A stretch of 52,224 bases of DNA from Candidatus Woesearchaeota archaeon (GCA_964457475.1 CAYWEK010000001.1:1-52224), one strand, 5' to 3'; positions 4,184 to 50,363 are shown, counted from the stretch's first letter. Notes: generated by a model from the sequence alone, not told the origin. Translations and numbers: made by a program.

Positions 4184-4265
4184 CGCCCAGACCAGGAGTC
4201 GAACCTGGAGATCCTTGCGGAAATCGCATTTCGAGTGCGACGGAGTACCGTTGTCCCATCTGGGC
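4184..4265 (-). tRNA. tRNA-Ser (anticodon CGA)
   Basis: The reverse complement folds as a cloverleaf: acceptor GCCCAGA/TCTGGGC, anticodon stem TCGCA/TGCGA with loop CTCGAAA, long variable arm TCCGCAAGGA, T arm CCAGG-TTCGACT-CCTGG. No CCA is encoded. Confidence 0.9.
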
Positions 4266-6396: not shown

Positions 6397-7101
6397 TTAA
6401 AGCCTTTTAGTAGCTAATTTTTGATTTTCTAAATAAAGATGGGGATTTTGAGAGAGATATTCTAATACGTGGTCAAGTATTTCTCTGCTTGTTCCATCAA
6501 TGTCCTTATGTTTATAAGATATAACCACAACTCTATCAGATTCACGAGAGGCAATATCCTGAAAACCTTGGTAAACCTTTTGATGAAAAATCAATTCTTG
6601 TGCATCCAATCTGTCATATTCTTCTTTGAATGGCAGATCAGCATTTCTGCTCTTGGCATTTTCCAGACCTTGTTCAACTGAAACATTAATCAGAAATGTC
6701 AAATCTGGTTCTAATCCTCCTGTTGCCAGATTAATTGTATTTGCTACTTGATCTAAATCTAATCCTCTACCATATCCTTGATAAGCAATTGTTGAATCAT
6801 AAAATCTATCACATAAAACAATTTCACCTTTATCCAAAGCAGGTCTTATCTTTTCTCTAACTATTTGAGCTCGGCTTGCGTTAATCAATAAAAGCTCTGT
6901 CTCAGGAGTCATTTTCACCCCATTCTTTGAGTGTTTTAGCGTATGTCTTATTTCTTCCCCTATTGGAGTGCCTCCTGGCTCTCTTAAAGCAGTTACATTG
7001 TATCCTTTGGACAACAGATTCAATCTCAAAAGCTCCAATTGAGAACTCTTTCCAGAACCTTCTCCTCCTTCAAACGTAATAAAAATACCCTTCTTTACCA
7101 T
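6397..7101 (-). CDS. tmk: Thymidylate (dTMP) kinase
   Basis: P-loop FITFEGGEGSGKSSQ plus LREPGGTPIGEEIR. I start it at Met42 of the tracked ORF (MVKKGIFITFEGG) because the longer N-terminus overlaps folA. That start lies 4 nt after the folA stop. Confidence 0.85.
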   Translation of the reverse strand: MVKKGIFITFEGGEGSGKSSQLELLRLNLLSKGYNVTALREPGGTPIGEEIRHTLKHSKNGVKMTPETELLLINASRAQIVREKIRPALDKGEIVLCDRFYDSTIAYQGYGRGLDLDQVANTINLATGGLEPDLTFLINVSVEQGLENAKSRNADLPFKEEYDRLDAQELIFHQKVYQGFQDIASRESDRVVVISYKHKDIDGTSREILDHVLEYLSQNPHLYLENQKLATKRL

Positions 7102-7105
7102 ACAA

Positions 7106-7606
7106 TTATTTTGGTCTCTCACTCCTCCTTTTATATGACACAAAATCGTAAGAACCTCTTGGTATTCTATTAACTTCTCTCCAGACTCCATTTTTATATT
7201 CTGGAAAATAAGAATCACCATCAAATTCTCCTCTAACTTCTGTTAACTCTAATCGGTCTGCCAAGTCTATAGTCTGCCTATAAATCTGCTCTCCTCCAAT
7301 AATAAATATCTTCTTTCCATAAAATTTTGCTCTCTGAAGAGCTTCATCAACTGATCCTGCTCTGATAACGCTATGCCCATCAAATCCATTATTACTTGTA
7401 ATAACTATGTTATTTCTCTCTGGCAAAGGTCGAAACTTTAGTGGTATTGACTCATAGGTCTTTCTCCCCATAATTACAGAATGACCAATAGTCAGCTTTT
7501 TGAATCTGCTTAAATCCTCTGGTAAATGCCAAGGAATTTTTCCATTTTTACCTATAATTCTGTTTTCTGCAAGTGCCGCGATGAGAACTAGTTGACTTGT
7601 GTCCAT
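7106..7606 (-). CDS. folA: Dihydrofolate reductase (FolA type)
   Basis: LIAALAENRIIGKNGKIPWHLPEDLSRFKKLTIGHSVIMGRKTYESI is the canonical DHFR N-terminal signature. The start overlaps the thyA stop by 1 nt. Confidence 0.85.
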   Translation of the reverse strand: MDTSQLVLIAALAENRIIGKNGKIPWHLPEDLSRFKKLTIGHSVIMGRKTYESIPLKFRPLPERNNIVITSNNGFDGHSVIRAGSVDEALQRAKFYGKKIFIIGGEQIYRQTIDLADRLELTEVRGEFDGDSYFPEYKNGVWREVNRIPRGSYDFVSYKRRSERPK

Positions 7607-8412
7607 TATACAGATATCGCAGCTTTTATAGCTGGATGTGGATCATAACCTGTAAGTTCAAAATCTTCATATTTGAAATCATAAATACTTTTTATATTTG
7701 GATTAAGTTTCATTTTTGGTGAGGGTTTTGGCTCTCTTGTTATCTGAAGTTTTGCCTGTTCAATATGATTAGAATATAAATGCAAATCTCCAAAAGTATG
7801 TACAAACTCGCCCGGCTTGAGATCTGTGACCTGGGCCACCATTTTTGTCAGAAGAGCATAGGAAGCTATATTGAATGGCACTCCTAAAAATAGATCTGCC
7901 GAGCGTTGATACAATTGACAGCTTAATTCTCCTTCGCTAACATAAAATTGGAACATGGCATGACATGGTGGAAGAGCCATATTATCAATTTCTCCAGGAT
8001 TCCATGCGGTTACTATCATTCTTCTTGAATTAGGCTTATTCCTAATCTGATTTATCACATCATCAATCTGGTTTATTGACCTTCCATTCGAAGTATGCCA
8101 ATCAAGCCATTGTGCTCCATAAACTCTTCCTAGATTTCCTTCATGATCTGCCCATTCATCCCAAATTGTAACTCCATTTTCTTTTAAATATCTAATATTT
8201 GTATCTCCTTTTAAAAACCAAAGTAGTTCGTGAATTATTGACTTGGTATGCATCTTCTTTGTTGTTAGCAGAGGAAAAGTATCATTTCTTAAGTCAAATC
8301 TGGTTTGGGCGCCAAAGATTGAATATGTTCCTGTTCCTGTTCTGTCTGCTTTGAATTTTCCAGTTTCCAATACTCTTCTTTCCAGATCCAGATATTGTTG
8401 CATATCTCTCAC
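7606..8412 (-). CDS. thyA: Thymidylate synthase (ThyA type)
   Basis: [38 protein letters not shown], the catalytic region [12 protein letters not shown] and DLHLYSNH. The true start may be the second Met (8403). Confidence 0.9.
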
Positions 8413-25679: not shown

Positions 25680-26441
25680 ATGCCTACTAAAAAAATTTAT
25701 AAAGCATATTTTTCTAGAGGAATGATGGAAAGTGTTTTGAAGAAGATTTTTTCAGGAAAAAGCGATGAGTATGTCCACAATGAATTTACCAAATTCAGCA
25801 GAGGTAGTTTTGGTAACCGTTATCTTATTGATGCTAAAAAAAAGGCTGACAAATTTAGTATAAAAACCGGTGCGGAGTTTGCGAACTTTTTAGTCCGTAG
25901 TTGCCTTGAAAAAATAAATGGAAGTGTTGAAGTATCTGGAGTAATCGTCTCAACTTTTGACATAAAGAAGGATATGGGTGGTTCTGTTTTTAATCCTGAT
26001 GAAGATGTTAAGCAATTTATGGGCATAAAACAACTAAAAGTGAACGGAAACATACCTACAAAGAAGATTATTGAAATAATGGATAAATATCCTAAAGCAT
26101 TTTTCGCCCTGACATTTTCTGGAAAGGATTTTGAACTTAAAATAAAAGCTAAAGCACCAAAAAGCGCTAAGCCATCGACTAAAGGTGCTGATGAAATAAA
26201 GGCCGACTTCTGCTCATTAAAAACCTCAGATAAATCAATTGTAAATGACCTTTTCTTTGATATTCCCGAATTTAAAGAAATAAAAATAAATCATACGATA
26301 CAAATAGATAATATAACTTTACCTAAAGGAGAAAAAGACCCTATCAAAATAAGAGAAAATGCGACAAGAGAAGGCAAGATAATAAGAAAAGTTATTGCTG
26401 ATGGGAATATTTCTAGGAAAGAAGCAGAGTTTAAAGCTTAG
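25680..26441 (+). CDS. Hypothetical protein (253 aa)
   Basis: Long ORF, K-rich and soluble. No family recognised. Confidence 0.5.
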   Translation: MPTKKIYKAYFSRGMMESVLKKIFSGKSDEYVHNEFTKFSRGSFGNRYLIDAKKKADKFSIKTGAEFANFLVRSCLEKINGSVEVSGVIVSTFDIKKDMGGSVFNPDEDVKQFMGIKQLKVNGNIPTKKIIEIMDKYPKAFFALTFSGKDFELKIKAKAPKSAKPSTKGADEIKADFCSLKTSDKSIVNDLFFDIPEFKEIKINHTIQIDNITLPKGEKDPIKIRENATREGKIIRKVIADGNISRKEAEFKA

Positions 26442-27118: not shown

Positions 27119-27295
27119 ATGAAAAAGGGGCAGAAGGATAAGCTGACAGTCCTGATTGATAGAAATATAAAGGAAAAATACCGCGTATTTTGTGACTTGC
27201 GCGGGCTAATTCTCGGCAAGCAAATAGAATTGTTTATGGAAAGAGAGCTGGAAAAGATAGAAAAAGGAGATAGAAGTGGTGAACGGAAAAAATAA
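27119..27295 (+). CDS. Small ribbon-helix-helix (CopG/ParG-like) DNA-binding protein, 58 aa (below the ORF-track cutoff)
   Basis: My own translation is MKKGQKDKLTVLIDRNIKEKYRVFCDLRGLILGKQIELFMERELEKIEKGDRSGERKK. It has a beta-strand followed by two helices in the RHH pattern. Its 3' end overlaps the next gene by 20 nt. Confidence 0.5.
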   Translation: MKKGQKDKLTVLIDRNIKEKYRVFCDLRGLILGKQIELFMERELEKIEKGDRSGERKK

Positions 27296-28040
27296 AAGAG
27301 GGCAGATAGCGATATGGATAATAATCGCGATTGTGATCGTAGCAGTAATTTTTATGCTTTTCCTACTAAACAAAAGCCCGACAACGATTACACAAGGTCA
27401 ATATGACTTCCAAAGCTCAATAGAAAAATGTGTCAGAGATGCAACAAGCAATGCCATCGATGTAATGATTCCTCAGGGGGGTTTTCTGCAGCCAGAGAAT
27501 TACAAGCTATACAATAATATCAATGTTACATTTTTGTGTCAAAATACTGGATATTTCAAACCATGTATCAATCAACATCCTTTGTTAATTAATGAGGAAA
27601 TCAATGAAATTGAGAATTATACGACACCAATAATAAATAATTGCTTTTCAAGCGCTCAAAGTGAACTTGAAAGTAGAAATTATGGCGTTTCCATAAGCCC
27701 GATTTCACTAAATGTTTCTTTCGGTTCTGGTAGAGTCTACACCCTTATCGTCACAAATGTAACGATAAGTAAAAATGGGCAAACGCAAACATATGATAAC
27801 TTCAATGTAGAATTGAATAGCCCGATATATGATTTAAGTAAGGTTGCGATGGATATAACTAATAACGAGGCCAAGTACTGCTATTTTGAATATGTAGGAT
27901 ATATGCTTCTTTATCCAAGGTGGCAGATATCTAAATTTACTTTCTCAGATTCGACAAAAATATATACTATAGAAGATCTACAATCAAAGAAGGAGATGAA
28001 TATAGCCGTAAGAGGATGCGCTATACCTCCAGGAATTTAA
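27276..28040 (+). CDS. Pilin-like secreted protein A1 (class III signal peptide)
   Basis: GTG start preceded by AAGGAGA. The N-terminus is MVNGKNKRGQIAIWIIIAIVIVAVIFMLFLL (basic residues, then G, Q, then a hydrophobic helix). It is a paralog of 31943-32710. Confidence 0.6.
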   Translation: MVNGKNKRGQIAIWIIIAIVIVAVIFMLFLLNKSPTTITQGQYDFQSSIEKCVRDATSNAIDVMIPQGGFLQPENYKLYNNINVTFLCQNTGYFKPCINQHPLLINEEINEIENYTTPIINNCFSSAQSELESRNYGVSISPISLNVSFGSGRVYTLIVTNVTISKNGQTQTYDNFNVELNSPIYDLSKVAMDITNNEAKYCYFEYVGYMLLYPRWQISKFTFSDSTKIYTIEDLQSKKEMNIAVRGCAIPPGI

Positions 28041-28041
28041 A

Positions 28042-31000
28042 ATGAGGGAAGAAAAAACCGAAAAAAATATTTATTTTTCAGTAATTCTAGAGATGTCTCT
28101 GATGATAGGGATGATTTTTGCAATTTCTTATATGATGGGGCAATATTCTCCTAACGGAACTATGATTATCCAATATAATTCATATGCTATTAATCCTGAT
28201 GCTATATTTTTGAAAGCTCTTGGAATATTTGACAAAATTGTGTTTGGCAACACTGGTTTTGCTTCCGCATTATCACAAAGTGACTTGACGAGTGGGGCAT
28301 ATACTTGCCCTATCGATAAGAATGGTTCAATCTGCCAGCAATATACTGCAAGTGACTGCGCAGCGAACTGCGCTGTTGACTGTCTTCCTACAACAGCAGA
28401 CCAAACTTCTCAATGTAAAATAGGAACATGTTATGATCCTGTGCAGGGAACGTGCCAAATAGGGGCGCCTCAAGTTGCGTGCCAACAGGACGGTGGGCAA
28501 TGGTTCAATGATCCTAATGGAAATGTGGCGCAATGTAAACCTGGATGTTGTCTCCTTGGTAGTAATGCATATTTTGAGACTTCACAACAATGTTCGCATG
28601 ATTCTAATGTAACTGGTCTAACGGAGGATTTTAGACCCGAAGTCAGCACTGAACTCGCATGCCTTGCATTATCACAAACACAAGTACAAGGAGCTTGCGT
28701 AATTGCATCTAATACGCAAAATTCTTGTAAGTTCACAACACAGGTTAATTGCGAACAAGATTTAGGTGGAAAATTTTATCCTAACTTATTATGCTCCAAT
28801 AACGCGTTAAACACAGGTTGTAAATCACAGGCAACAATTGGATGTGTACAGGGTAAAGACGAAGTTTATTGGTTTGATTCATGTGGAAATCAGGAGAATA
28901 TTTATGATGCAAATAAAGTCAAAAGTTATAACAATGGAATGATTCTTTCAAAAAATTCCGCCTGTTCGCTTGCCAGCGGAAATAATTTGCTTGCTAATCA
29001 AGCCACGTGTGGAAATTGCAATTTTGTTCTTGGAAGCATATGTGGAGCCAGTACAAATACACAAAAACTTTCTGAGCCGAATGCAAATGTAGTCTGCAAA
29101 GACTTATCATGTGTTGATGCAGATGGACAAAAAAGAGTAAATGGAGAGTCCTGGTGTGCATATCAAGGTTCAACAGGAACTGCCGCAGGAGCAGGAGGAT
29201 TTTTGAGATCTACAGACACTGTTGGAAGTAGAGATTTCAGGGAAACGTGCATAAACGGACAAATAGAAACAGACCAGTGTGCTGATTATAGAAATGAAAT
29301 CTGTGTTGAGTCGCAAACAAGCACTCCCAATACTCCCACTGGTAAAATATCTTCTGCCGCATGTAGAATAAATCTGGGTTATGAATGTTATGATTACAAT
29401 AAAAATAATGACATGAACAGTTGTAAGCAAAACCCTGATTGTTTCGTGAAAAGTGTTCAAGTATCAGGAAGTTTTAATTTTAATATTTGCGCTCCCAAAT
29501 ATGTTCCTGGTTTTGACTTAACTCAAAGAGGTACTGGAGCGGCTGCAATCTGTTCAATAGCTAATCAACAATGCCAAGTCGTTTATGTCAAAGAACTTTT
29601 TGGAGGATGGCAATGCAAAGCAAATTGTGAATGCCAAACTTCATCATTTGCGGAACAAATGAATGATTTATGTATCTCATTAGGAGATTGCGGAACAAAA
29701 GTAAATTATATTGGAGATTTAACGAAAAATGAACATGTTTTCAAGAGCACTAGTAAGGATAGTCTTGGAAATGAAGTTGGAGCAAGCAGTGGAGATTTAA
29801 GCAATAATTATGTTAATGGGTTGGTGAAATATGCTGATGAGAATTTGTTCAAGAATCAGTATATACAAGCATCAGATATATCTTCGCTGTATGGAAATAT
29901 CGGAATTCCTGGATGGCTTGGACAGGCTCAGTCTCCTACAGATCCAACCGCCGGCGTTACCGGAGAACTTTCCATGATATCTGGGATGGTTGGAATTTTA
30001 GTTCTTGCAGCGGCGCATACGAGTATAGGATTAGCATCACTTGGAGCTCTTAGTAGCGCTGTGGCCCAACCAACTGAAATAGGTCAGGTAACTGGCACCG
30101 GAGCTTATGGGCTAACTCCCGCGGCATCTGCAGCGTTCGGCGCAATAGGCGGCGCCACTTTAGGATTAGCTTTAGTTTCTTTCTTGATTGACTTCACAGG
30201 AATAGGAAAGGGCTTACCTCCAGCTGTGACTTATTCTTTAATGGCGGTGGGAGCGACTGCTGGAGGAATAATAGGGGCAAATATAGCTGCTGGCGGAGGA
30301 TTAGGAAGCTTTAGCGCTGCCTGGACAAGCTTGGCATTCTTATCTGCCCTTTCTGTTGTACTGATTGCTATTGTGATTATAGCAATAATAGTCTTATCAT
30401 TACTTGGAATTGGTGATACAAAAACAGTCTATTACTCTTTTGAATGTGATCCATGGCAAGCTCCTAATGGTGGAGCAAAATGCGATCAGTGTGGAAAAGA
30501 TGGATTCCCATGCTCGCAATATTCCTGCCAAAGTCTTGGCCAAAACTGCCAACTAATCAATGAAGGTAGCGCAAATCCTGCATGTGTTAATATTAATCCA
30601 AATGATACTAGCTCACCAGTAATAACTCCTGCAACAAATCTCTTGCCTGATGGATATACTGCACAGCAAACACAGAATGGAGTAAAAATCACAACTTCCA
30701 ATGGTGGATGTCTGACTGAAAATTACCAACAAATACCTTTTGGAATCAATCTTAATAAATATGGACAGTGCAAAATAGACACGGAGCATACTGCATCATT
30801 TGATGATATGCAACAACCACTTGATTCAGGACTTTATCTCGAAAACCATAGTCTTCCATTAGTTATACCTAGTCTTGAAAGCCTTGGAGTTCAAAGCTTT
30901 AATCCAAATGCGACTGCTGATTATAATATTTATTTGAGATGCCAGGACAAATCAGGAAATACGAATACAAATGAGTATGATATAAACTTCTGCATAGCTC

Positions 31001-31920
31001 CTGGTAATGATACAACTCCTGCAGCAATAACATATTCTGATCCTTCAACAAAAACTCTTGCTTTTAATACAACAAGTATTAACGCATCTGTTTACACAAG
31101 CGAACCGGCAAATTGCAACTGGGACACTAAAGATACAGACTATAATTTGATGGCAAATAACTTTAGTTGCGCAACTGATTTTGCACAGAGAACATTATAT
31201 GGATGGAAATGTAATGCTCTTCTTCCTTTCTCTGGAAATTCAACTACGTATTATGTTAGATGTCTTGACCAACCTTGGTTGACTGGGGATAATGCGACAA
31301 AGAGAAATGCAAACACCCAGAGTTATCCTCTAACTTTCACACGTAGTTCAAAAGCATTAAACATAGACTCTATAAATGTTGATGGCAAAAATTTAAGTTT
31401 TGGAGTTGCCCCAGCAAGTGTTGAAGTTGATGTCAAAACATCTGGTGGATTAGATGGCACTGCTGAATGTGCCTATGTTTGGGGAAATTCAACCATTGAC
31501 TTTTTCAGCACATTGAGCACAAGTCACAGCCAAGTATTTCAGACTTTATATCCTGGGGAAATAACTCTTCCAATAATATGCACCGATTCTGTGGGCAACG
31601 TTGCGCAGAAAACAGCACATTTCAATATCCTTCTAGATACAACTCCGCCGATAATAACAAGAATCTATTCTCAATCTGGACAACTCAATATAATAACCGA
31701 TGAACAATCAACATGCTATTATAGTAATGATGATAGTCAAAAATGTCTTTTCGATATAAGCAATGCGAGCATCTTTAACGGGATTTATACAAATGATCAT
31801 AGTATAAACTTTGACACAAGTCAAGTGTATTATGTAAAATGTAAAGATAAAATTGGAAATTATCCTGGAACATGCAGCACAATAGTAAGAGAGGGGAATT
31901 ATGATTCGCAACAATTATAA
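28042..31920 (+). CDS. Giant cysteine-rich surface/membrane protein B1C1 (1292 aa), no family recognised
   Basis: N-terminal signal anchor, a Cys-dense ectodomain (nt ~28290-29725), a Gly/Ala-rich hydrophobic block (~29960-30420), a Cys knot (CDPWQAPNGGAKCDQCGKDGFPCSQYSCQSLGQNCQ) and four repeats delimited by TTPP-like linkers. The N-terminal half is paralogous to 32712-34256 and the C-terminal half to 35025-37217. Confidence 0.7.
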   Translation: MREEKTEKNIYFSVILEMSLMIGMIFAISYMMGQYSPNGTMIIQYNSYAINPDAIFLKALGIFDKIVFGNTGFASALSQSDLTSGAYTCPIDKNGSICQQYTASDCAANCAVDCLPTTADQTSQCKIGTCYDPVQGTCQIGAPQVACQQDGGQWFNDPNGNVAQCKPGCCLLGSNAYFETSQQCSHDSNVTGLTEDFRPEVSTELACLALSQTQVQGACVIASNTQNSCKFTTQVNCEQDLGGKFYPNLLCSNNALNTGCKSQATIGCVQGKDEVYWFDSCGNQENIYDANKVKSYNNGMILSKNSACSLASGNNLLANQATCGNCNFVLGSICGASTNTQKLSEPNANVVCKDLSCVDADGQKRVNGESWCAYQGSTGTAAGAGGFLRSTDTVGSRDFRETCINGQIETDQCADYRNEICVESQTSTPNTPTGKISSAACRINLGYECYDYNKNNDMNSCKQNPDCFVKSVQVSGSFNFNICAPKYVPGFDLTQRGTGAAAICSIANQQCQVVYVKELFGGWQCKANCECQTSSFAEQMNDLCISLGDCGTKVNYIGDLTKNEHVFKSTSKDSLGNEVGASSGDLSNNYVNGLVKYADENLFKNQYIQASDISSLYGNIGIPGWLGQAQSPTDPTAGVTGELSMISGMVGILVLAAAHTSIGLASLGALSSAVAQPTEIGQVTGTGAYGLTPAASAAFGAIGGATLGLALVSFLIDFTGIGKGLPPAVTYSLMAVGATAGGIIGANIAAGGGLGSFSAAWTSLAFLSALSVVLIAIVIIAIIVLSLLGIGDTKTVYYSFECDPWQAPNGGAKCDQCGKDGFPCSQYSCQSLGQNCQLINEGSANPACVNINPNDTSSPVITPATNLLPDGYTAQQTQNGVKITTSNGGCLTENYQQIPFGINLNKYGQCKIDTEHTASFDDMQQPLDSGLYLENHSLPLVIPSLESLGVQSFNPNATADYNIYLRCQDKSGNTNTNEYDINFCIAPGNDTTPAAITYSDPSTKTLAFNTTSINASVYTSEPANCNWDTKDTDYNLMANNFSCATDFAQRTLYGWKCNALLPFSGNSTTYYVRCLDQPWLTGDNATKRNANTQSYPLTFTRSSKALNIDSINVDGKNLSFGVAPASVEVDVKTSGGLDGTAECAYVWGNSTIDFFSTLSTSHSQVFQTLYPGEITLPIICTDSVGNVAQKTAHFNILLDTTPPIITRIYSQSGQLNIITDEQSTCYYSNDDSQKCLFDISNASIFNGIYTNDHSINFDTSQVYYVKCKDKIGNYPGTCSTIVREGNYDSQQL

Positions 31921-31942
31921 ATACGAGTCTTCTCGGATATTC

Positions 31943-32710
31943 ATGCGAGGCAAAAAGGGGCAAATAGCGATATTTGTTATAATAGCAATAGTGATTGTTG
32001 CTATAATCCTGCTCATTGTTTTTTATCCAAGACTTCCTTCTATCACCCAAGGAGCTGAGCTTTCACCTGTTTCTTTTCTTGCAAGTTGCATTCAACCAGA
32101 TCTGAAAACTGATGTTGCTTTGCTTGGTGGCACTGGGGGTTATGCAACACCTGATGCATATCTTGAATATCAAGGAGCTAAAATACAATATTTGTGTTAT
32201 ACTGCTGAAGACTATAAGACCTGTGTTGTGCAACAGCCACTTATAAAAGAAAATTTTGAAAGACAATTAAATACTTTGATAAAAAGTAAAGTTAGCGGAT
32301 GCGTACAAAGTTTGAATCAGGAATATACTAATCAAGGATATCAAGTCACTATAGGAAATGTTGATAGTCAGACAAGCATAAATCCTGGAGACATTCTAAT
32401 ATCAATAACTGCACCTATGACTGCTACAAAGTCTGGAGTGACAAAGAGTTTCACCGGATTCAATGTTGAAGTACCAAGTAAGATGTATGACTTGTTGATG
32501 ATAGCAACAAGCGTAATCGATTATGAATCAACACTTGGAGACTCTGAAACAACACTTTATGTTCAATACTATCCTAATTTGGTGATGCAAAAAATAAGAC
32601 TTGATGATGGCAGTAAAGTTTATAGCCTGACTGATGTTACAACTAATGAAAGTTTTAGATTTGCCTCGAGAAGCCTAGTATGGCCTCCAGGATATGGAAC
32701 AACTACGTAA
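31943..32710 (+). CDS. Pilin-like secreted protein A2 (class III signal peptide)
   Basis: MRGKKGQIAIFVIIAIVIVAIILLIVFY. The shared Cys pattern (C..LC....YK.C..Q.PL) and the C-terminal WPPGY/IPPGI match A1. The tracked start at 31901 would overlap the upstream gene; I prefer Met15. Confidence 0.6.
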   Translation: MRGKKGQIAIFVIIAIVIVAIILLIVFYPRLPSITQGAELSPVSFLASCIQPDLKTDVALLGGTGGYATPDAYLEYQGAKIQYLCYTAEDYKTCVVQQPLIKENFERQLNTLIKSKVSGCVQSLNQEYTNQGYQVTIGNVDSQTSINPGDILISITAPMTATKSGVTKSFTGFNVEVPSKMYDLLMIATSVIDYESTLGDSETTLYVQYYPNLVMQKIRLDDGSKVYSLTDVTTNESFRFASRSLVWPPGYGTTT

Positions 32711-32711
32711 A

Positions 32712-34256
32712 ATGAAAGTAAAAATTAAAAATCTTGGACTAAGAATTACTTTATTAATCAGTTTAGTACTCTTTGTTTCTGTTTTTAGTACTTATTTTAC
32801 TTTGGCAGATAGTCTGAACCAGACAGTTTGTTGTGAAAAAACAACTTCTAATTTATATTGTCAAAATGTTCCAGCAAGTCAGTGCGCTTCTGGATCAAGG
32901 CAAGTGCCAACTTCATGTTCATCAACTTCATTCTGCAATCCTGGAACATGTTACAATTCTGTGCAAGGAACATGTCTTCAAAATACACCACAAATAACCT
33001 GCAATGCAAATGGTGGAATATGGTCTGCACAAAGTCCACCTCAGTGTAATCTTGGATGTTGCCTTCTTGGAGACCAAGCAGCTTATGTGACATTAACAAG
33101 ATGTAAATATCTTTCATCTTCCCTTGGCTTGCAAACAAATTATGATCCTAGCATAACAAGTGAAACTGCTTGTATACAGCAAGTCCAAGGTCAGGATCAA
33201 GGCGCATGTGTTTATACTTCATCCGACTTGCAAACAACATGCAAGTTTACAACTAGAGCACAGTGTAATCTCGGATTTAATGATACTAACACTGCACAAA
33301 CACCACAATTCTATAAGGATACCTTGTGCACAGCTCCAGTTCTTGGCACTAATTGCGCTCCTACTACAAAGACTACTTGCGTTCCAGGTAAAGATGGAGT
33401 TTATTTCGTTGATACATGCGGTAACCCTGCAAATATTTATGATGCATCAAAAATAAATGACCAAGAGTATTGGACTAATGTTAAAACTATCACACAATCA
33501 TGCAGCCCTAACTCAGGAAATTCGAACTCTCAGACATGTGGAAACTGTAATTATCTTCAGGGAAGTATCTGTAGACAATCATCATCAAGTACTGCTAAGC
33601 CAAGCTATGGAAATTATATTTGTCAGGACTTAAATTGTCAACAAACTTCTGATGGTAAGTCTTACAAACAGGGAGAATCATGGTGCGTTTATACTGATTC
33701 GGGATCTCAAAACACTGGCAATAATGCTGTGGGAAGTGAGTTCTACAAACATATATGTGAAAATGGACAAGAAATTCTTGAGCAATGTTCTGGATTTAGG
33801 CAAGAGGTTTGTCTTCAGGGAAGTATACAAACATCTTCAGGATTGTTTTCGCAGGCAGCATGTAGAGTAAATAGATGGCAAGATTGCACTGCACAAACAA
33901 ATCAACAGGATTGCCAGAATACTGATAAAAGAGATTGTCTTTGGGAAAATGGAGTAGGACTTAATGGTTCAACTGGGGGAGCATGTATCCCACAATACAC
34001 TCCAGGTTTGCAATTCTGGAGCGGTAGTGATGCTCAAAATATATGTGCGCAAGGAAACGCGCAATGTATAGTTACATTTGAAAAAGGTTTGTTTGGTGGA
34101 GAGACATGTAAGTCAAATTGTGACTGTTTAACATCTGACTGGCAGAAACAGAGAATACAAGTGTGCGAGGCACTTGGTGATTGTGGACCAAAGGTAAACT
34201 GGATAGGCCAGCAAGGATATGGTTCTGGTTATAATATAACAACAAGTAGCGCCTAA
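32712..34256 (+). CDS. Cysteine-rich secreted protein B2 (paralog of the N-terminal half of the 1292-aa protein)
   Basis: Signal peptide MKVKIKNLGLRITLLISLVLFVSVFSTYFTLA. About 43 Cys by hand count. Collinear anchors with B1 include GTCYNSVQGTC, GCCLLGDQAAYVT, CGNCNYLQGSIC, GESWCVY and LGDCGPKVNWIG. The tracked start is 32694. Confidence 0.7.
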   Translation: MKVKIKNLGLRITLLISLVLFVSVFSTYFTLADSLNQTVCCEKTTSNLYCQNVPASQCASGSRQVPTSCSSTSFCNPGTCYNSVQGTCLQNTPQITCNANGGIWSAQSPPQCNLGCCLLGDQAAYVTLTRCKYLSSSLGLQTNYDPSITSETACIQQVQGQDQGACVYTSSDLQTTCKFTTRAQCNLGFNDTNTAQTPQFYKDTLCTAPVLGTNCAPTTKTTCVPGKDGVYFVDTCGNPANIYDASKINDQEYWTNVKTITQSCSPNSGNSNSQTCGNCNYLQGSICRQSSSSTAKPSYGNYICQDLNCQQTSDGKSYKQGESWCVYTDSGSQNTGNNAVGSEFYKHICENGQEILEQCSGFRQEVCLQGSIQTSSGLFSQAACRVNRWQDCTAQTNQQDCQNTDKRDCLWENGVGLNGSTGGACIPQYTPGLQFWSGSDAQNICAQGNAQCIVTFEKGLFGGETCKSNCDCLTSDWQKQRIQVCEALGDCGPKVNWIGQQGYGSGYNITTSSA

Positions 34257-34317
34257 TTATTTATGTCACTTATTAGTAACAGCAAAGTTTAAATATCTAT
34301 AATTTTCTTAATCTTTT

Positions 34318-34971
34318 ATGAAAATAGGTAAACATTTAGGAATTGCAGGTTTAGTTACTGCCGGAACTATTTTGAGTGGGTGCGATGCTACTATGCGAGA
34401 AGATGGTGCAAATGTCTTAGACAATCTAGCAAACAGAGTAGTTACTGGAGGAGCAGTATATGATGCTAATTCACAAATTCAGGCAAACCAAGGCAATTAC
34501 AGAGCCGCTGCAGCGTGGGGCGCACTTGCAGAAACTGCACAAAATGACTACAATAGGCAAACAGCTATAGATGCTGCTGAGGCTGGAAGAAGCGATATAA
34601 CTATCAATAATTATCCTTCCCAGAAGAATAGGCAGATAGATTTAATTCTTTGTTATTGGAAAGACATGAACAATAATGGTAAAATTGATTTAAATGAAAT
34701 TTCTATAAGAAAAACTTTTTATGCTCCTGCAAATGTAACTATATTGGATACAAGTACGGTTACTATTCCATACAACGTTGATATTAAATTATTCAAAGAT
34801 GCAGACGTATTAAGTATAAAAGAAATGCGTTTGAATGGACTTACTCATGACGGTTTCTCGGAAATCTCTGCGCTGACATTTTATGGTCTGACAGATGGTT
34901 ATTACTCTGCTGAGTGCTCTGTTAATGGCGAAATAATCAAAGAATTGACATTTAATGTTGTAAATGAATGA
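34318..34971 (+). CDS. Putative lipoprotein (217 aa)
   Basis: Lipobox-like N-terminus MKIGKHLGIAGLVTAGTILSGC. It has its own TATA (gtttaaatat) centred 26 nt upstream of the ATG. Confidence 0.6.
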   Translation: MKIGKHLGIAGLVTAGTILSGCDATMREDGANVLDNLANRVVTGGAVYDANSQIQANQGNYRAAAAWGALAETAQNDYNRQTAIDAAEAGRSDITINNYPSQKNRQIDLILCYWKDMNNNGKIDLNEISIRKTFYAPANVTILDTSTVTIPYNVDIKLFKDADVLSIKEMRLNGLTHDGFSEISALTFYGLTDGYYSAECSVNGEIIKELTFNVVNE

Positions 34972-35024
34972 TGGAATTATTAACCTTCAAGAATATTTAT
35001 AAACATAAAAATTCTTGATAAGAT

Positions 35025-37217
35025 ATGAGGAAAGGGCTGAAAAAGAGGTTCGTTTATTTTGGAGTTATTGCGCAAATCTTTCTTATGATTTCATTCAGTT
35101 TTACTCTTTCTTTTATCATAAATAATAATTTTGTTAATGCTGCAATTGATAATACTAATTTGGCTCTTGATAATCCTAGTGGAACAGGCATATCTACTAC
35201 GGCTGGGCTTGGTGGCGTTTCCGACTTCAACGGTTTTAACGGTCCGTATAATGGACTAGCTAATCAAATATTGCCTCCTCCAGCAGCTATAAATCCAGTC
35301 TCTGGATCCGCACCTATAATAGTATCACATGCAAATGGATATACTCCTTATCAATTACCTGGAGGTTTAGGCACTATTAGTAATCCTCTTCTTGGGCATC
35401 TTGCTCAAGGACTTGTTTGGGCCGGACTTGTTGCCGGAGCTATTCAATTATTAGGTGCTTTTGGTCTAGGAAAAGGAACAACTAATGCATTGACTATTTC
35501 TGCAGTTGGAGGCATTCTTGCTGGACAAGCCGTAACTGGAGCCTTTCAAAGCGGCTATCTAAACTCATTAGTGGCAGGTAATGGAAAATTTTTTGGATTG
35601 TTTAAGACTGCTGGACAGGCAGGCTTTGCAGTAGGAGCAGTAGTCGCAATAGCACTTTTCATCGCAACTTATTCATCCCAAACTAAAAAAATGGTGAACT
35701 TTCAATGCCTTCCTTTCCAACCAGCTCTTGGCGGCTCGCAATGCCAGAAGTGCAATAATAATCCTTTCGAGCCATGTACTGAATATAGATGCAGAGCACT
35801 AGGACAGGCATGTCAGCTACTAAATGCTGGAAGCAATGATCAACAGTGTGCGTGGGTAAGTCCAAATGATGTAGCTGCACCAACTATAACTCCATGGAAT
35901 GACGCGCTTTCCCCTACTGGATTAAAGTATACTCCTGATACTGCTGTAAATCCTCCGGCAATTGGAACGAAAATAGTTACATCTGGTGGAGGATGTCTTC
36001 CTGCTTTCACACCATTACAATTCGGTATTACTACGAATGAACCTGCACAGTGCAAAATAGATTATAATCATACTGCAAACTATAGTGATATGCAATATTA
36101 TTTTGGAGGAAGCAATTATTTTGATTACAATCATACTGAAATATTATCATTGCCCGGTCCAAATACTGGAAATAATTCTATTGCTCCAGCATTACAAAAT
36201 AATGGTCAATTCTCTCTTTATGTGAGGTGTATGGATGCAAATGGAAATACAAACGTTGCTGAATATGCATTCGCATTCTGTGTTGATCAAGGACCGGACA
36301 CAACTCCTCCAGTAATAGAAGGTTCTTCAATACCATCTGGAAGTTATGTTGGATATGGACAAAGCAATGTGCCTATAGAATTATACACGAATGAGCCGGC
36401 TACTTGTAACTGGGACACTCAAGATAAAGATTATGATTCTATGGCTAATAACATGACTTGTACAACACAAAGTTACCAAGTAAATGCAAATCTACAATAT
36501 ACATGTTTTGGAAATCTTACTGGAATTCAAAATAATAAAGATAATACTTTCTACTTTAGATGCAAGGATCAGCCTGACAAGCCTGATAATCAGAGAAATG
36601 TTGATGTACAAAGTACAACTATTGTATTGAAGGGGAGCCAACCTTTAGTGATTCTTTCTGCTGCACCAAATGGAACTATAACTGGAAGTACGGATACAAT
36701 ACCTGTTAATCTACAGCTTGAAACAAGTGCTGGAGCAACTGGGGATGGTAATTCAACATGTTCATTCTCTTCAACAGGACAAAATGACAGCTATGTCGCG
36801 ATGTTCCAGACAGATAGCTTTACACACAGTCAGACACTTAACCTAGCTACAGGAGATTATACATATTATTTCAGATGCATAGATTCTGGAGGAAACGCTG
36901 CGGAAACCAACACGACTTTCAGTGTGTCTGTTGATACTCAGCCTCCAATAGTAACAAGAGTATACAAGCAGGATGCATTGAAGATAGTCACAAATGAGAA
37001 CGCCCAATGTAGCTATTCTCTTACTTCCTGTAACTTTAATATAGCTGATGGGATAAAGATGATATATTCGAATCCAGACATACAGAATAATCTATTTGCT
37101 GAATGGAAATCAAGCCAGACATATTATATAAGATGCATGGACTTGTATGGAAATGAACCTGCTCCAAATCAATGTAGCATAATTGTAAGTCCTGTTACAA
37201 TAAGCGGAGCTCAATAG
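35025..37217 (+). CDS. Membrane/surface protein C2 (paralog of the C-terminal half of the 1292-aa protein)
   Basis: Signal anchor, a Gly/Ala-rich hydrophobic block (~35390-35680), a Cys knot (CLPFQPALGGSQCQKCNNNPFEPCTEYRCRALGQACQ) and four repeats (NEPATCNWDTQDKDYDSMANN, YYFRCIDSGGN, DTQPPIVTRVY, YYIRCMDLYGN). It has its own TATA 25 nt upstream. Confidence 0.7.
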   Translation: MRKGLKKRFVYFGVIAQIFLMISFSFTLSFIINNNFVNAAIDNTNLALDNPSGTGISTTAGLGGVSDFNGFNGPYNGLANQILPPPAAINPVSGSAPIIVSHANGYTPYQLPGGLGTISNPLLGHLAQGLVWAGLVAGAIQLLGAFGLGKGTTNALTISAVGGILAGQAVTGAFQSGYLNSLVAGNGKFFGLFKTAGQAGFAVGAVVAIALFIATYSSQTKKMVNFQCLPFQPALGGSQCQKCNNNPFEPCTEYRCRALGQACQLLNAGSNDQQCAWVSPNDVAAPTITPWNDALSPTGLKYTPDTAVNPPAIGTKIVTSGGGCLPAFTPLQFGITTNEPAQCKIDYNHTANYSDMQYYFGGSNYFDYNHTEILSLPGPNTGNNSIAPALQNNGQFSLYVRCMDANGNTNVAEYAFAFCVDQGPDTTPPVIEGSSIPSGSYVGYGQSNVPIELYTNEPATCNWDTQDKDYDSMANNMTCTTQSYQVNANLQYTCFGNLTGIQNNKDNTFYFRCKDQPDKPDNQRNVDVQSTTIVLKGSQPLVILSAAPNGTITGSTDTIPVNLQLETSAGATGDGNSTCSFSSTGQNDSYVAMFQTDSFTHSQTLNLATGDYTYYFRCIDSGGNAAETNTTFSVSVDTQPPIVTRVYKQDALKIVTNENAQCSYSLTSCNFNIADGIKMIYSNPDIQNNLFAEWKSSQTYYIRCMDLYGNEPAPNQCSIIVSPVTISGAQ

Positions 37218-49005: not shown

Positions 49006-49129
49006 TTAAGTACACCTCTTTTATCTCCTCTTTTTTTATCCAAGCCGAATCCAGTGTAAAAAATTTATCAACGATATAAATTTGTCGACGTAGATATTGT
49101 TATTCTAAAATGCTAACCAAAAATAAAAA

Positions 49130-49438
49130 GAGTCGGAGTAGGCCAGATTTTGTTGAATGCTGTAATCAGACCATTCATGCTGACATCAGTCTTAGCAAGC
49201 GGCTTTGGCTTTTGCATCAGCGAAGTCGCCCGTTTCATCCTTTCTCTCATTTCCTAGCTTCTCACATGATTCATTGCTCTATGAGAGCGGTGTCGTTTCT
49301 GTTGCGGAGCTCAGCTTCACAACTGCTCCCCTTTCGAGGAGTCGCCTTATATGATGTCCGGACCTTCCTCAGAACTTAGAATTCATTACAATTCCTGCCA
49401 ATTTAATGGCAAAGTCCCGAAATCAGCTCTCCGACTCT
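49130..49438 (-). ncRNA. rnpB: RNase P RNA (archaeal)
   Basis: On the minus strand: terminal P1 pairing GAGTCGGAG/CTCCGACTC, CR-I GAGGAAGGTCCGGAC, GCAACAGAAACG, and CR-V-like ACAAAATCTGGCCTAC. Length is ~308 nt. A TATA (atttaaaa, complement of 49462-49469) is centred ~25 nt upstream of the 5' end. Confidence 0.82.
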
Positions 49439-49461
49439 TTAAAATTCAGCGCTGAGAAGGG

Positions 49462-49469
49462 TTTTAAAT
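49462..49469 (-). promoter_or_regulatory. TATA box for RNase P RNA
   Basis: atttaaaa on the minus strand, ~25 nt upstream of the first base of the P1 helix. Confidence 0.5.
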
Positions 49470-49477
49470 GTTACGAT

Positions 49478-49687
49478 TCACCCAAACTTCAAAACCTTGA
49501 AAACAATTTTTTCTGCGCCAAATTCCTCAACTTTCCAGATTCTTTTAGCACCAGAACCAGCATGAAGCTCTATTGTATCAAAAACAATATCTCCGTTTTC
49601 AGGCCCATAGATAGAATATGTTCCGTTTTCAAGAACATTTTTACTTTTTTCTTCCTTATTTTTCACAGCCTCTTTTTGTTCTTCCAT
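49478..49687 (-). CDS. Hypothetical small protein (69 aa)
   Basis: ORF with beta-rich composition (GTYSIYGPENGDIVFDTIELHAGSGAKRIWKVEEF). The overlapping plus-strand ORF is F/L-rich junk. Confidence 0.35.
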   Translation of the reverse strand: MEEQKEAVKNKEEKSKNVLENGTYSIYGPENGDIVFDTIELHAGSGAKRIWKVEEFGAEKIVFKVLKFG

Positions 49688-49727
49688 TGTTTTTCTAGAA
49701 TCATTATATTTAATAATGTTTGTATGA

Positions 49728-50363
49728 TTAAAAGCCTAATTTTTCCTTTACAATAATAAGATTGATCCTGTCTTGCTCAAATTCCTTATTAAATATTAAT
49801 ACCTTACTGACATTACTGCCTGTGTTTATATTATAAGCTTTATTTAATCTGACATTTTCTAATGGAAGAATATAATCGTAAATTCTTTTCATGGCTTCTT
49901 CGAGATTCTTAACTATCTTCTGCGCTCCTGCGACCCATATTACTTTCCCTGCACCATAAGCATAAGCTGGAAGTTGGCTGCCAGTGTTAGAAACAACAAC
50001 TACCTTTCCGTCTTCTGTAATCGCATGAACACTTCCAACAACGAATTCTGGAGAAGAACCTAGCTGCTTCTGCTGCATTTTTTGTGTATTTCTATCAAGA
50101 GAATTCAGTTTATTCCTTAAAGAAGTATAATTGCCTGAATTATTTATTTCTTCAGATAAACTGATGGAATCAAGAGTCACAGAAGTCATCTGCATAACTT
50201 CACTTCCATTAGGAATCAGTTTCAAAACCTCTTTTTTAGCTTCTTCTTTGGTACTAACGACAATAACATTTACGTTTGCCTGTTTAAGTGAATCTATAAC
50301 TTTCTTTATTGCTTCATCAGAAGCAATTTTATCCCATTTTACTACTTTTTTATTATCGGACAT
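49728..50363 (-). CDS. LUD-domain (DUF162/YkgG-like) protein
   Basis: VNVIVVSTKEEAKKEV..., GSVHAITEDGKVVVVSNTGSQL and VIWVAGAQKIV match the LUD/lactate-utilisation C-like fold pattern. Confidence 0.55.
   Translation of the reverse strand: MSDNKKVVKWDKIASDEAIKKVIDSLKQANVNVIVVSTKEEAKKEVLKLIPNGSEVMQMTSVTLDSISLSEEINNSGNYTSLRNKLNSLDRNTQKMQQKQLGSSPEFVVGSVHAITEDGKVVVVSNTGSQLPAYAYGAGKVIWVAGAQKIVKNLEEAMKRIYDYILPLENVRLNKAYNINTGSNVSKVLIFNKEFEQDRINLIIVKEKLGF

Follow-up and report, generated by a model that had tools for sequence, protein, structure and literature searches.

Proteins that are fused in one genome and split in another (Rosetta-stone or domain-fusion pairs) were reportedly used in 1999, by Marcotte and co-workers and by Enright and co-workers, to predict interactions. 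Among archaeal surface systems, the two-component surface layer (S-layer) of the Sulfolobales is encoded by the adjacent, co-transcribed genes of SlaA and SlaB, and combines a membrane-anchored stalk of beta-sandwich domains with a larger outer subunit, SlaB being anchored by one C-terminal helix. Another group of surface proteins carries class III (prepilin-like) signal peptides, with a basic N-terminus, Gly/Ala-Gln and a hydrophobic helix, a pattern known from pilins and archaellins; archaeal proteins of this class include type IV pilins, archaellins and the sugar-binding proteins of the Sulfolobus bindosome. The locus described here lies at 27276-37217 of a window of 52,224 nucleotides (nt), the whole stretch of DNA that was analysed, from a Candidatus Woesearchaeota archaeon (GCA_964457475.1, CAYWEK010000001.1:1-52224), and holds the genes here called p1, A, p2, B and C. 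A preliminary description of this DNA had equated the 1292-residue protein A with the 520-residue protein B plus the 730-residue protein C, and had taken the fused and split versions in the same locus as strong genomic evidence that B and C interact physically. The explanation favoured here, to which we give about an even chance of being right, is that the locus is an operon of two ancient paralogous cassettes, p1-A and p2-B-C, encoding a conserved envelope complex of DPANN archaea with an immunoglobulin (Ig)-like stalk and a cysteine-rich head.

As in Rosetta-stone pairs, the composite A is collinear with two separate proteins that match non-overlapping parts of it, is a genuine single gene and gives a hint of interaction. 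In the classic pairs, orthologues are joined in one genome and separate in another, whereas here composite and components are paralogs in the same operon of the same genome, throughout the clade; moreover, A looks like a domain insertion (N-terminus of C, B module, rest of C) with no end-to-end junction. The SlaA/SlaB layer resembles this locus in its adjacent genes, in the combination of a stalk with beta-sandwich domains and a second subunit, and in the low charge of the envelope proteins, features known here from sequence and models. It differs in that the predicted anchor of C is formed by N-terminal Gly/Ala-rich helices, and SlaA/SlaB has no equivalent of the very high cysteine content, of the fused paralog or of the prepilin-like partner genes. 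The Pfam, NCBIfam, PDB-sequence and Foldseek matches of these proteins included no S-layer family or structure. Two-component archaeal S-layers of the SlaA/SlaB type are mentioned in PMC11329633.

A composite protein and its separate paralogs

In pairwise alignments (BLASTP with composition-based statistics), residues 55-558 of A are collinear with residues 9-505 of B at 36% identity (189/523; E 1e-84), and residues 715-1282 of A with residues 142-721 of C at 35% identity (212/603; E 8e-82). The anchor peptides given in the preliminary description are all present and in register in both alignments. Aligned together, 121 B-type and A-type sequences have about 32 invariant cysteine columns, and 123 C-type and A-type sequences have about 20; because these columns hold across the alignments, the similarity among A, B and C is positional and not compositional. 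A likeness due purely to cysteine and glycine richness, which had been raised as a caveat, is ruled out by these in-register columns and by the composition-adjusted E values. A second caveat, a chimeric join in the assembly at 29725-29960, is excluded by the many full-length fused homologues in independent assemblies. The probability that A is an artefact, whether through a chimeric join or through shared composition, is in fact negligible: besides the E values and cysteine columns just given, fused homologues from independent assemblies occupy more than 150 clusters at 50% identity, and the only broken A genes (in loci L054 and L074) contain runs of N. A natural fission of A in these two loci was considered and rejected, since the runs of N are scaffold gaps.

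The likeness is not restricted to the large proteins. The products of p1 and p2 are themselves paralogs (28% identity, E 1e-27, BLASTP), a relationship that the preliminary description overlooked, and this paralogy, in addition to that of A with B and C, means that the whole cassette has been duplicated. At the DNA level only short patches of 73-77% are common to the paralogs, and the duplication is therefore not recent. The features of the two cassettes are the following, with lengths in amino acids (aa):

27276-28040, + strand: p1, 254 aa, with a prepilin-like (class III) N-terminus, KNKRGQ and about 20 hydrophobic residues; first gene of cassette 1.
28042-31920, + strand: A, the 1292-aa composite, which begins 1 nt past the p1 stop.
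28069-28140, + strand: N-terminal transmembrane helix of A (residues 10-33), predicted by hydropathy; homologous to the N-terminal helix of C.
28204-28278, + strand: semi-hydrophobic stretch and F[VA]SALE..DLQ.G..TC motif of A (residues 55-79), aligning with the signal-peptide cleavage region of B.
28279-29721, + strand: cysteine-rich B-type domain of A (residues 80-560), with 43 cysteines.
29722-30426, + strand: linker and Gly/Ala-rich hydrophobic helices of A (residues 561-795); one helix, at about 640-665, is extra, and the other three are homologous to C 120-216.
30427-31917, + strand: ectodomain of A, of the C type (residues 796-1292), made up of a 7-Cys module and a tandem array of Ig-like domains, with 21 cysteines.
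31901-32710, + strand: p2, a 269-aa prepilin-like protein; first gene of cassette 2.
32694-34256, + strand: B, 520 aa, predicted to be secreted and cysteine-rich, with a signal-peptide-like helix (14-35), then a 43-Cys domain and no later membrane helix.
34318-34971, + strand: X217, a 217-aa open reading frame (ORF) between B and C, with a lipobox-like N-terminus (GTILSGC).
35025-37217, + strand: C, a 730-aa predicted membrane-anchored Ig-like stalk protein.
35037-35123, + strand: helix at the N-terminus of C (residues 5-33), a homologue of the one at the N-terminus of A; an AXA-type motif (VNA) comes after it.
35124-35381, + strand: disordered Gly/Pro/Asn-rich linker of C (residues 34-119), with a predicted local distance difference test score (pLDDT) of 33-40; it has the same position as the B module in A.
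35382-35672, + strand: three Gly/Ala-rich helices of C (121-144, 150-175 and 196-216) with GxxxG-type motifs, the predicted membrane anchor.
35700-35864, + strand: membrane-proximal 7-Cys module of C (C228, C240, C243, C251, C256, C263 and C275 invariant).
35865-37199, + strand: about four tandem beta-sandwich (Ig-like) domains of C, with conserved cysteine pairs in each.

Because p1 and A are separated by a gap of 1 nt, while A and p2 overlap by 20 nt and p2 and B by 17 nt, these four genes are placed in one operon. The ORF of B starts at 32694 and not at 32712, a correction to one coordinate of the preliminary description, the others being right. The public NCBI gene call for A (P0001, 1269 aa) begins 23 codons after the first ATG (28042-28110), and therefore lacks some of the N-terminal membrane helix, which is conserved and has homologues in C and in other A-type proteins. 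The product of X217 has no family match in Pfam or NCBIfam, and a homologue is present, besides the window, only in L007 (among 81 loci); X217 is a lineage-specific insertion into the operon and not a conserved part of the system. A scan for bacterial-type promoters and terminators gave 47 sites against 42 expected, with models that are bacterial and not useful for an archaeon.

The internal order of A has been followed by comparing family profiles. Residues 1-38 of the A family match residues 1-39 of the C family in hhalign (probability 98.7%, E 1.5e-16), compared with a probability of 6% for the N-termini of A and B; for the two proteins of the window, the comparison of A1-60 with C1-60 reaches z = 8 relative to shuffled sequences. 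What corresponds to the signal-peptidase-type cleavage region of B is instead the internal region around residues 55-79 of A (hhalign of family N-termini, E 1.5e-23), and the F[VA]SALE..DLQ.G..TC motif is present in 108 of the 115 A-type proteins. This stretch may be a relic of the B signal peptide or a processing site, and the conservation of the internal motif suggests more than a decaying relic. Further downstream, the mid-region of A matches C (hhalign E 6e-39) only over the last three Gly/Ala-rich helices and the Cys module; the linker and extra helix of A have no counterpart in C, nor does the disordered linker of C have one in A. The order is accordingly a C-type N-terminal helix, a B module with an apparent relic signal peptide, a new linker and helix, and then the rest of C. 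Judged from these alignments, A appears to be less a head-to-tail union of B and C than a C-type scaffold that has received a B module behind its first helix. The match of the A N-terminus with C, and not with B, is the other point that the preliminary description overlooked, and its picture of A as B joined end to end with C has to be corrected, given that the N-terminal helix is C-type and the B module lies within a C-type frame.

A simple Rosetta-stone origin, by read-through fusion of adjacent B and C genes into A or by an end-to-end split of an A-like gene into B and C, would account for the collinear, non-overlapping arrangement of the two large domains and for the position of B directly upstream of C in cassette 2 of most loci; even the sum of helices fits, one in B and four in C giving the five of A. 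Nevertheless, such an origin is unlikely in view of the parts that fail to correspond: the N-terminal helix of A is homologous to that of C and not to the B signal peptide, the cleavage region of B is internal in A, and the extra helix of A is unlike the N-terminal helix of C. In addition, a simple split of an A-like ancestor would have put an A-type N-terminus on B, the opposite of what is observed, which favours insertion. It seems rather more probable, on these grounds, that a copy of B was inserted into the linker of a C copy, a tolerant site, and that the fused protein is the derived state. A Rosetta stone can, in this way, be a domain insertion between ancient paralogs within one operon, and this matters for automated interaction prediction.

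Conservation, synteny and age of the operon

Fused proteins of 1210-1380 aa with 98-100% coverage of A form more than 100 clusters at 90% identity (NCBI, JGI, ENA and Logan assemblies). When 1.84 billion representatives of clusters at 50% identity were searched with a profile, 4493 relatives came up, 2106 of them with E < 1e-30; the best 150 are all fused, sequence weighting having turned the search profile into a full-length A profile, so that this search yields counts and no polarity. Proteins of the B type (about 490-560 aa, more than 1600 matches) and of the C type (about 690-880 aa) are as widespread as the fused ones and are found on the same contigs. The closest relatives of the p1, A, p2, B and C proteins are all in metagenome-assembled genomes labelled Pacearchaeota, Woesearchaeota or Nanoarchaeota (DPANN).

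Gene order was compared by classifying the ORFs of 84 fetched loci (designated by L numbers) and of the window. The array AI-2E(-), U253(+), cobA(-), p1(+), A(+), p2(+), B(+), usually C(+), and Hjc(-) is present in nearly every sufficiently long locus, and p1-A-p2-B-(C) recurs in about 80 species-level loci. In most loci p2, B and C are contiguous, with B directly upstream of C; in some genomes (L001, L003) C lies several kb from B. Two variants were found. In L057 (7883-11533) the order is U253-cobA-p2-B-C without p1-A; the B protein of this locus is deeply nested in the tree, and the absence of p1-A is therefore a secondary loss or relocation. In L068 (153-9678), two tandem copies of p1-A precede p2-B-C.

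In the neighbour-joining trees, one for the B-type domain and one for the Ig-type part, the A proteins and the split ones fall into different clades. The only exceptions are A genes cut by a gap or by the edge of a locus, and two basal A sequences on short branches, which still have A-type sequences as their nearest neighbours. Since the A and split clades are separate and L079 is basal in both subtrees, the duplication is older than the radiation of all sampled species. The relationship between A and the split forms is an ancient paralogy fixed across the whole clade, neither an artefact nor a recent event. The coexistence of fused and split versions in one operon, as first described, is in this respect confirmed, whereas a simple local or recent fusion or fission has been replaced by a clade-wide and old paralogy. 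The phylogeny of the B and C domains, which had been suggested as a means of polarising fusion versus fission, resolves the A-type and split-type clades and leaves the direction unpolarised.

The rates at which the proteins change have been compared with those of their neighbours. Mean pairwise identity is 0.63 for B and 0.58 for C, against 0.70 for cobA, 0.67 for Hjc and 0.48 for AI-2E; A evolves faster, with mean pairwise identities of 0.50 and 0.43. B and C are thus about as conserved as the neighbouring housekeeping genes, which argues for a core (structural) role rather than for a rapidly diversifying adhesin. Scans of all six proteins against Pfam, NCBIfam and PHROGs gave nothing but weak Ig-like matches, and profile searches against PDB sequences (with the A/B profile, and with p1/p2) gave no match. 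A scan of viral contigs with the C profile found no relatives and PHROGs held none either, which points to a cellular origin. No description of this protein family was found in the searched literature on DPANN surface biology. The p1, A, p2, B and C proteins match no described family and are specific to DPANN archaea of the Pacearchaeota/Woesearchaeota type. These are, to our knowledge, among the most widespread uncultured archaea, and we know of nothing reported on their cell envelope or on their attachment to partners. The operon, which is unannotated, occurs in hundreds of species and is conserved like the housekeeping genes beside it; it would account for most of the cysteine-rich surface protein encoded in this genome region, which makes it a prime candidate for a core envelope or contact structure of the clade.

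Predicted structures and the possible association of B with C

The AlphaFold2 model of B, built on a 121-sequence alignment (pLDDT 88.4, predicted template-modelling score 0.73), consists of an N-terminal helix and a compact domain made mainly of beta-hairpins. Foldseek found no significant match for it in the PDB (best E 0.2) or in BFVD (best E 0.29); the B domain is confidently predicted as a disulfide-rich novel fold with no solved or viral relative in these two databases. The model of C (pLDDT 83) has a helix at 5-33, a disordered stretch at 34-119 and helices at 121-144, 150-175 and 196-216, followed by beta-sandwich domains over about 263-721 at pLDDT > 90. In this case Foldseek returned 440 PDB matches below 1e-3, all of them tandem Ig, FN3 or cadherin ectodomains, with E values down to 3e-12. 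Among them, adhesion molecules such as PTP-delta, titin, desmoglein and the grappling-hook protein GhpA share the beta-sandwich array of C (E 3e-12 to 1e-8); in contrast, identity with them is 7-14%, TM-scores over the whole chain are 0.12-0.2, and nothing in the comparison points to a common function, so that the modelled likeness of C to Ig, FN3 and cadherin ectodomains would be a generic fold resemblance only. The Pfam family Big_13 gives the same kind of signal, with one domain in C (residues 584-638) at 29.4 bits against a cut-off of 27, and a score of 13.6 bits, below threshold, in A. Paralogs in fused and split form are already known, as are archaeal surface proteins that have Ig-like domains and pilin-like partners; the part that appears to be new, according to the models, is the domain of novel fold.

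The composition of the ectodomains sets them apart from the housekeeping proteins of the window. Lys plus Arg make up 4-6% of the A, B and C ectodomains against 16% of the housekeeping proteins, Ser, Thr, Asn, Gln and Gly 42-48% against 24%, and Cys 4-9% against 0.6%; this composition, together with the conserved cysteine pair of each Ig-like domain, points to an extracellular location. A surface location of A, B and C is likewise suggested by the signal and anchor helices and by the Ig-like array. As a separate observation, N-x-S/T sequons are depleted in the B-type domains relative to shuffles (two against 6.9+-2.2 at 28279-29721, four against 7.5+-2.3 at 32814-34253), and in the Ig-like parts (12 and 10) they are as frequent as expected.

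The number of cysteines bears on whether B and C associate. B has 43 cysteines in 95 of 119 orthologues and an odd count in 105 of 119; C has 21 in 84 of 114 and an odd count in 91 of 114. The total in A is even in 91 of 115 proteins, with 21 in the Ig part of 97 out of 99 and usually 41 or 43 in the B part. One unpaired cysteine in each half and an even sum are what a single disulfide would give, between subunits in B and C or between domains in A; one B-C disulfide would fit this parity, which does not prove it. Distances within the families point the same way: the correlation of the B and C distance matrices (r = 0.87) is the highest of the pairs tested, although the correlations are high for all pairs (0.6-0.87) and a housekeeping control removed almost nothing, which makes this a weak argument. 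Taken with the adjacent and overlapping genes, the odd cysteine counts and the distance correlation suggest, circumstantially, that B and C interact. The Rosetta-stone reasoning of the preliminary description remains reasonable for B-C binding, with less force than the words "strong genomic evidence" conveyed. The fused and split paralogs do provide a ready hypothesis on which parts touch, including one predicted B-C disulfide.

Another possibility is that the proteins act independently, B being secreted and free (for instance as a lectin, a toxin or a binding protein), C an Ig-like membrane protein with no relation to it and A a form in which a B-like domain is tethered, with no B-C complex at all. 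The own signal peptide of B and its lack of an anchor would agree with this, as would the loci in which C lies several kb from B (L001, L003) and the roughly 240 residues and several membrane helices that separate the two domains in A. Against such independence stand the contiguity of p2, B and C in most loci, the odd-plus-odd cysteine parity kept in more than 100 orthologues of each protein, the fact that the strongest distance-matrix correlation is that of B with C, and the similarly high conservation of both, and we regard it as improbable.

Prepilin-like partners, the proposed complex and its genomic setting

The motif [KR][KR][GA]Q followed by about 20 hydrophobic residues is present in nearly all of 149 sequences of the p1/p2 family, with Q10 invariant. 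The N-termini read KRGQ or KKGQ, and both families have four invariant cysteines and a conserved C-terminal motif of the RSCAWPPG type. By analogy with class III proteins, with which p1 and p2 share the short basic N-terminus, the Gly/Ala-Gln with its invariant Gln and the hydrophobic stretch, these N-termini can be called prepilin-like. On the other hand, p1 and p2 differ from that class in a globular domain of about 225 aa with the four invariant cysteines, which has no known relatives (no Pfam, NCBIfam or PDB match), and in two negative results: no curated hidden Markov model (HMM) of class III signal peptides, archaellins or pilins matched at E <= 0.1 among 50 members, and no pilus ATPase, platform protein or prepilin peptidase was found in the 52-kb window or in the 10-kb flanks of L001 and L003. 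The same results bear on a further explanation, in which the operon would serve a filament like a type IV pilus, as its accessory or tip complex, with p1 and p2 as minor pilins and A or B/C as adhesins. Its attraction lies in the prepilin-like N-termini and the invariant Gln after Gly/Ala; moreover, DPANN archaea have been reported with type IV filament systems (bioRxiv 10.64898/2026.04.22.720090). It is very unlikely given the lack of HMM matches and of assembly genes in the window and in those flanks, and also because A and C are predicted to be polytopic membrane proteins, which is unexpected for adhesins borne on a filament.

According to the explanation favoured here, that of an envelope complex encoded by two ancient paralogous cassettes, p2-B-C would be the split form. 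C would be anchored by its Gly/Ala-rich helices, with the 7-Cys module and about four Ig-like domains extending outward as a stalk; B would be a secreted, disulfide-rich globular head of novel fold that docks on C, and the leftover odd cysteine of B and that of C may join in one intermolecular disulfide. Cassette 1 (p1-A) would be the single-chain form, a C-type scaffold in which the B module follows the first membrane helix and replaces the disordered linker. The hydrophobic N-terminal helix of p1 or p2 probably packs on the membrane helices of A or C in the same cassette. We infer in this way the binding of B to C, the disulfide, the role of p1 and p2, a structural or adhesive function in the envelope and the direction of evolution.

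Several results weigh against this explanation, beginning with the two negative results for p1 and p2 and the limited value of the distance correlations given above. By hydropathy, A has five hydrophobic helices, C four and B one; if all of them spanned the membrane, the homologous Ig parts of A and C would lie on opposite sides, so that the predicted topology is not self-consistent. A conserved basic cluster after the last helix also strains it, and hydropathy combined with the positive-inside rule gave no consistent solution; either helix H2 and the extra helix of A would not span the membrane, or the N-terminus of C would be handled differently. The odd cysteine of each protein could equally be a free thiol or a metal ligand, with the same counts, and a correlated gain of extra cysteines in B and C of the same genome was looked for and none was seen. 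Finally, no single-cassette outgroup was found and fusion versus fission is not formally polarised; and L057, having p2-B-C without p1-A, means that the two cassettes need not work together.

A different function has also been considered, namely that of a host-contact or membrane-fusion device of episymbiotic DPANN archaea, in which the stalk would present the head and the Gly/Ala-rich segments, including the extra helix of A, would act as fusion peptides or as a glycine-zipper pore. The hydrophobic region concerned is 170-240 residues long, Gly/Ala-rich (G 16%, A 15%) and almost uncharged, one hydrophobic helix of A fits no consistent topology, and the distribution is limited to DPANN lineages thought to be host-dependent. 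The archaeal fusexin Fsx1, one of the HAP2-type class II fusogens, is said to have been described by Moi and co-workers in 2022. The operon resembles Fsx1 and HAP2 in presenting a cysteine-rich archaeal ectodomain on several membrane helices, and membrane fusion is conceivable in a symbiont. The domain order is different, however, and the likeness is conceptual only: structure comparison gave no sign of the three-domain beta-rich ectodomain of class II fusogens, with no significant match for the fold of B and only generic Ig arrays for C. A fusion device is quite improbable for the further reasons that no fusion-protein structure was among the matches of the B model, that B and C are conserved like housekeeping genes and unlike typical host-recognition proteins, and that the data give no sign that the organism has a host. 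A more elaborate proposal would be a contact structure in which a glycine-zipper bundle, an Ig-like stalk and a cysteine-rich head held by one inter-subunit disulfide link ultra-small archaea with other cells or exchange material, the faster-evolving A giving partner specificity; this is a long shot.

The window is archaeal, as it holds the 3' part of an archaeal 23S rRNA gene at its end, an archaeal RNase P RNA and four tRNA genes. Its guanine plus cytosine (GC) content is about 34%, with a GC peak of 0.457 at 30000-30599, within the linker and helix region of A. The operon lies among housekeeping genes, which encode aminoacyl-tRNA synthetases, thymidylate synthase, DHFR, thymidylate kinase and ribosomal proteins as well as Ogg, Hjc, an AI-2E transporter and a cobA-like ATP:corrinoid adenosyltransferase. 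Immediately upstream, a 58-aa ORF at 27119-27295 (MKKGQKDKLTVLIDRNIKEKYRVF...) overlaps the start of p1 by 20 nt and looks like a ribbon-helix-helix DNA-binding protein. Homologues of it precede p1 in just three close relatives (L005, L012 and L073); in L001, a different small helix-turn-helix gene occupies that place. U253, at 25680-26441, is a lysine-rich, apparently cytoplasmic protein of 253 aa with no Pfam or NCBIfam match, and the synteny AI-2E / U253 / cobA beside the operon is kept in about 34 of the loci examined.

Other observations concern genes further away. The RNase P RNA and the 116-aa ORF at 49128-49439 and 49406-49756 overlap, the RNA (135 bits) being on the - strand and the start of the ORF on the + strand; the 116-aa ORF is probably not a gene. 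A tRNA-Ser(CGA) at 4184-4265 was found by ARAGORN and is not among the tRNA matches at the Rfam gathering threshold; the other three tRNAs were found by both methods. Finally, genes for thymidylate kinase, DHFR and ThyA form a contiguous cluster on the - strand at 6397-8412, in what is a reduced genome of the DPANN type; the tmk ORF overlaps that of DHFR by about 120 nt, and the real start of tmk is therefore probably further downstream.

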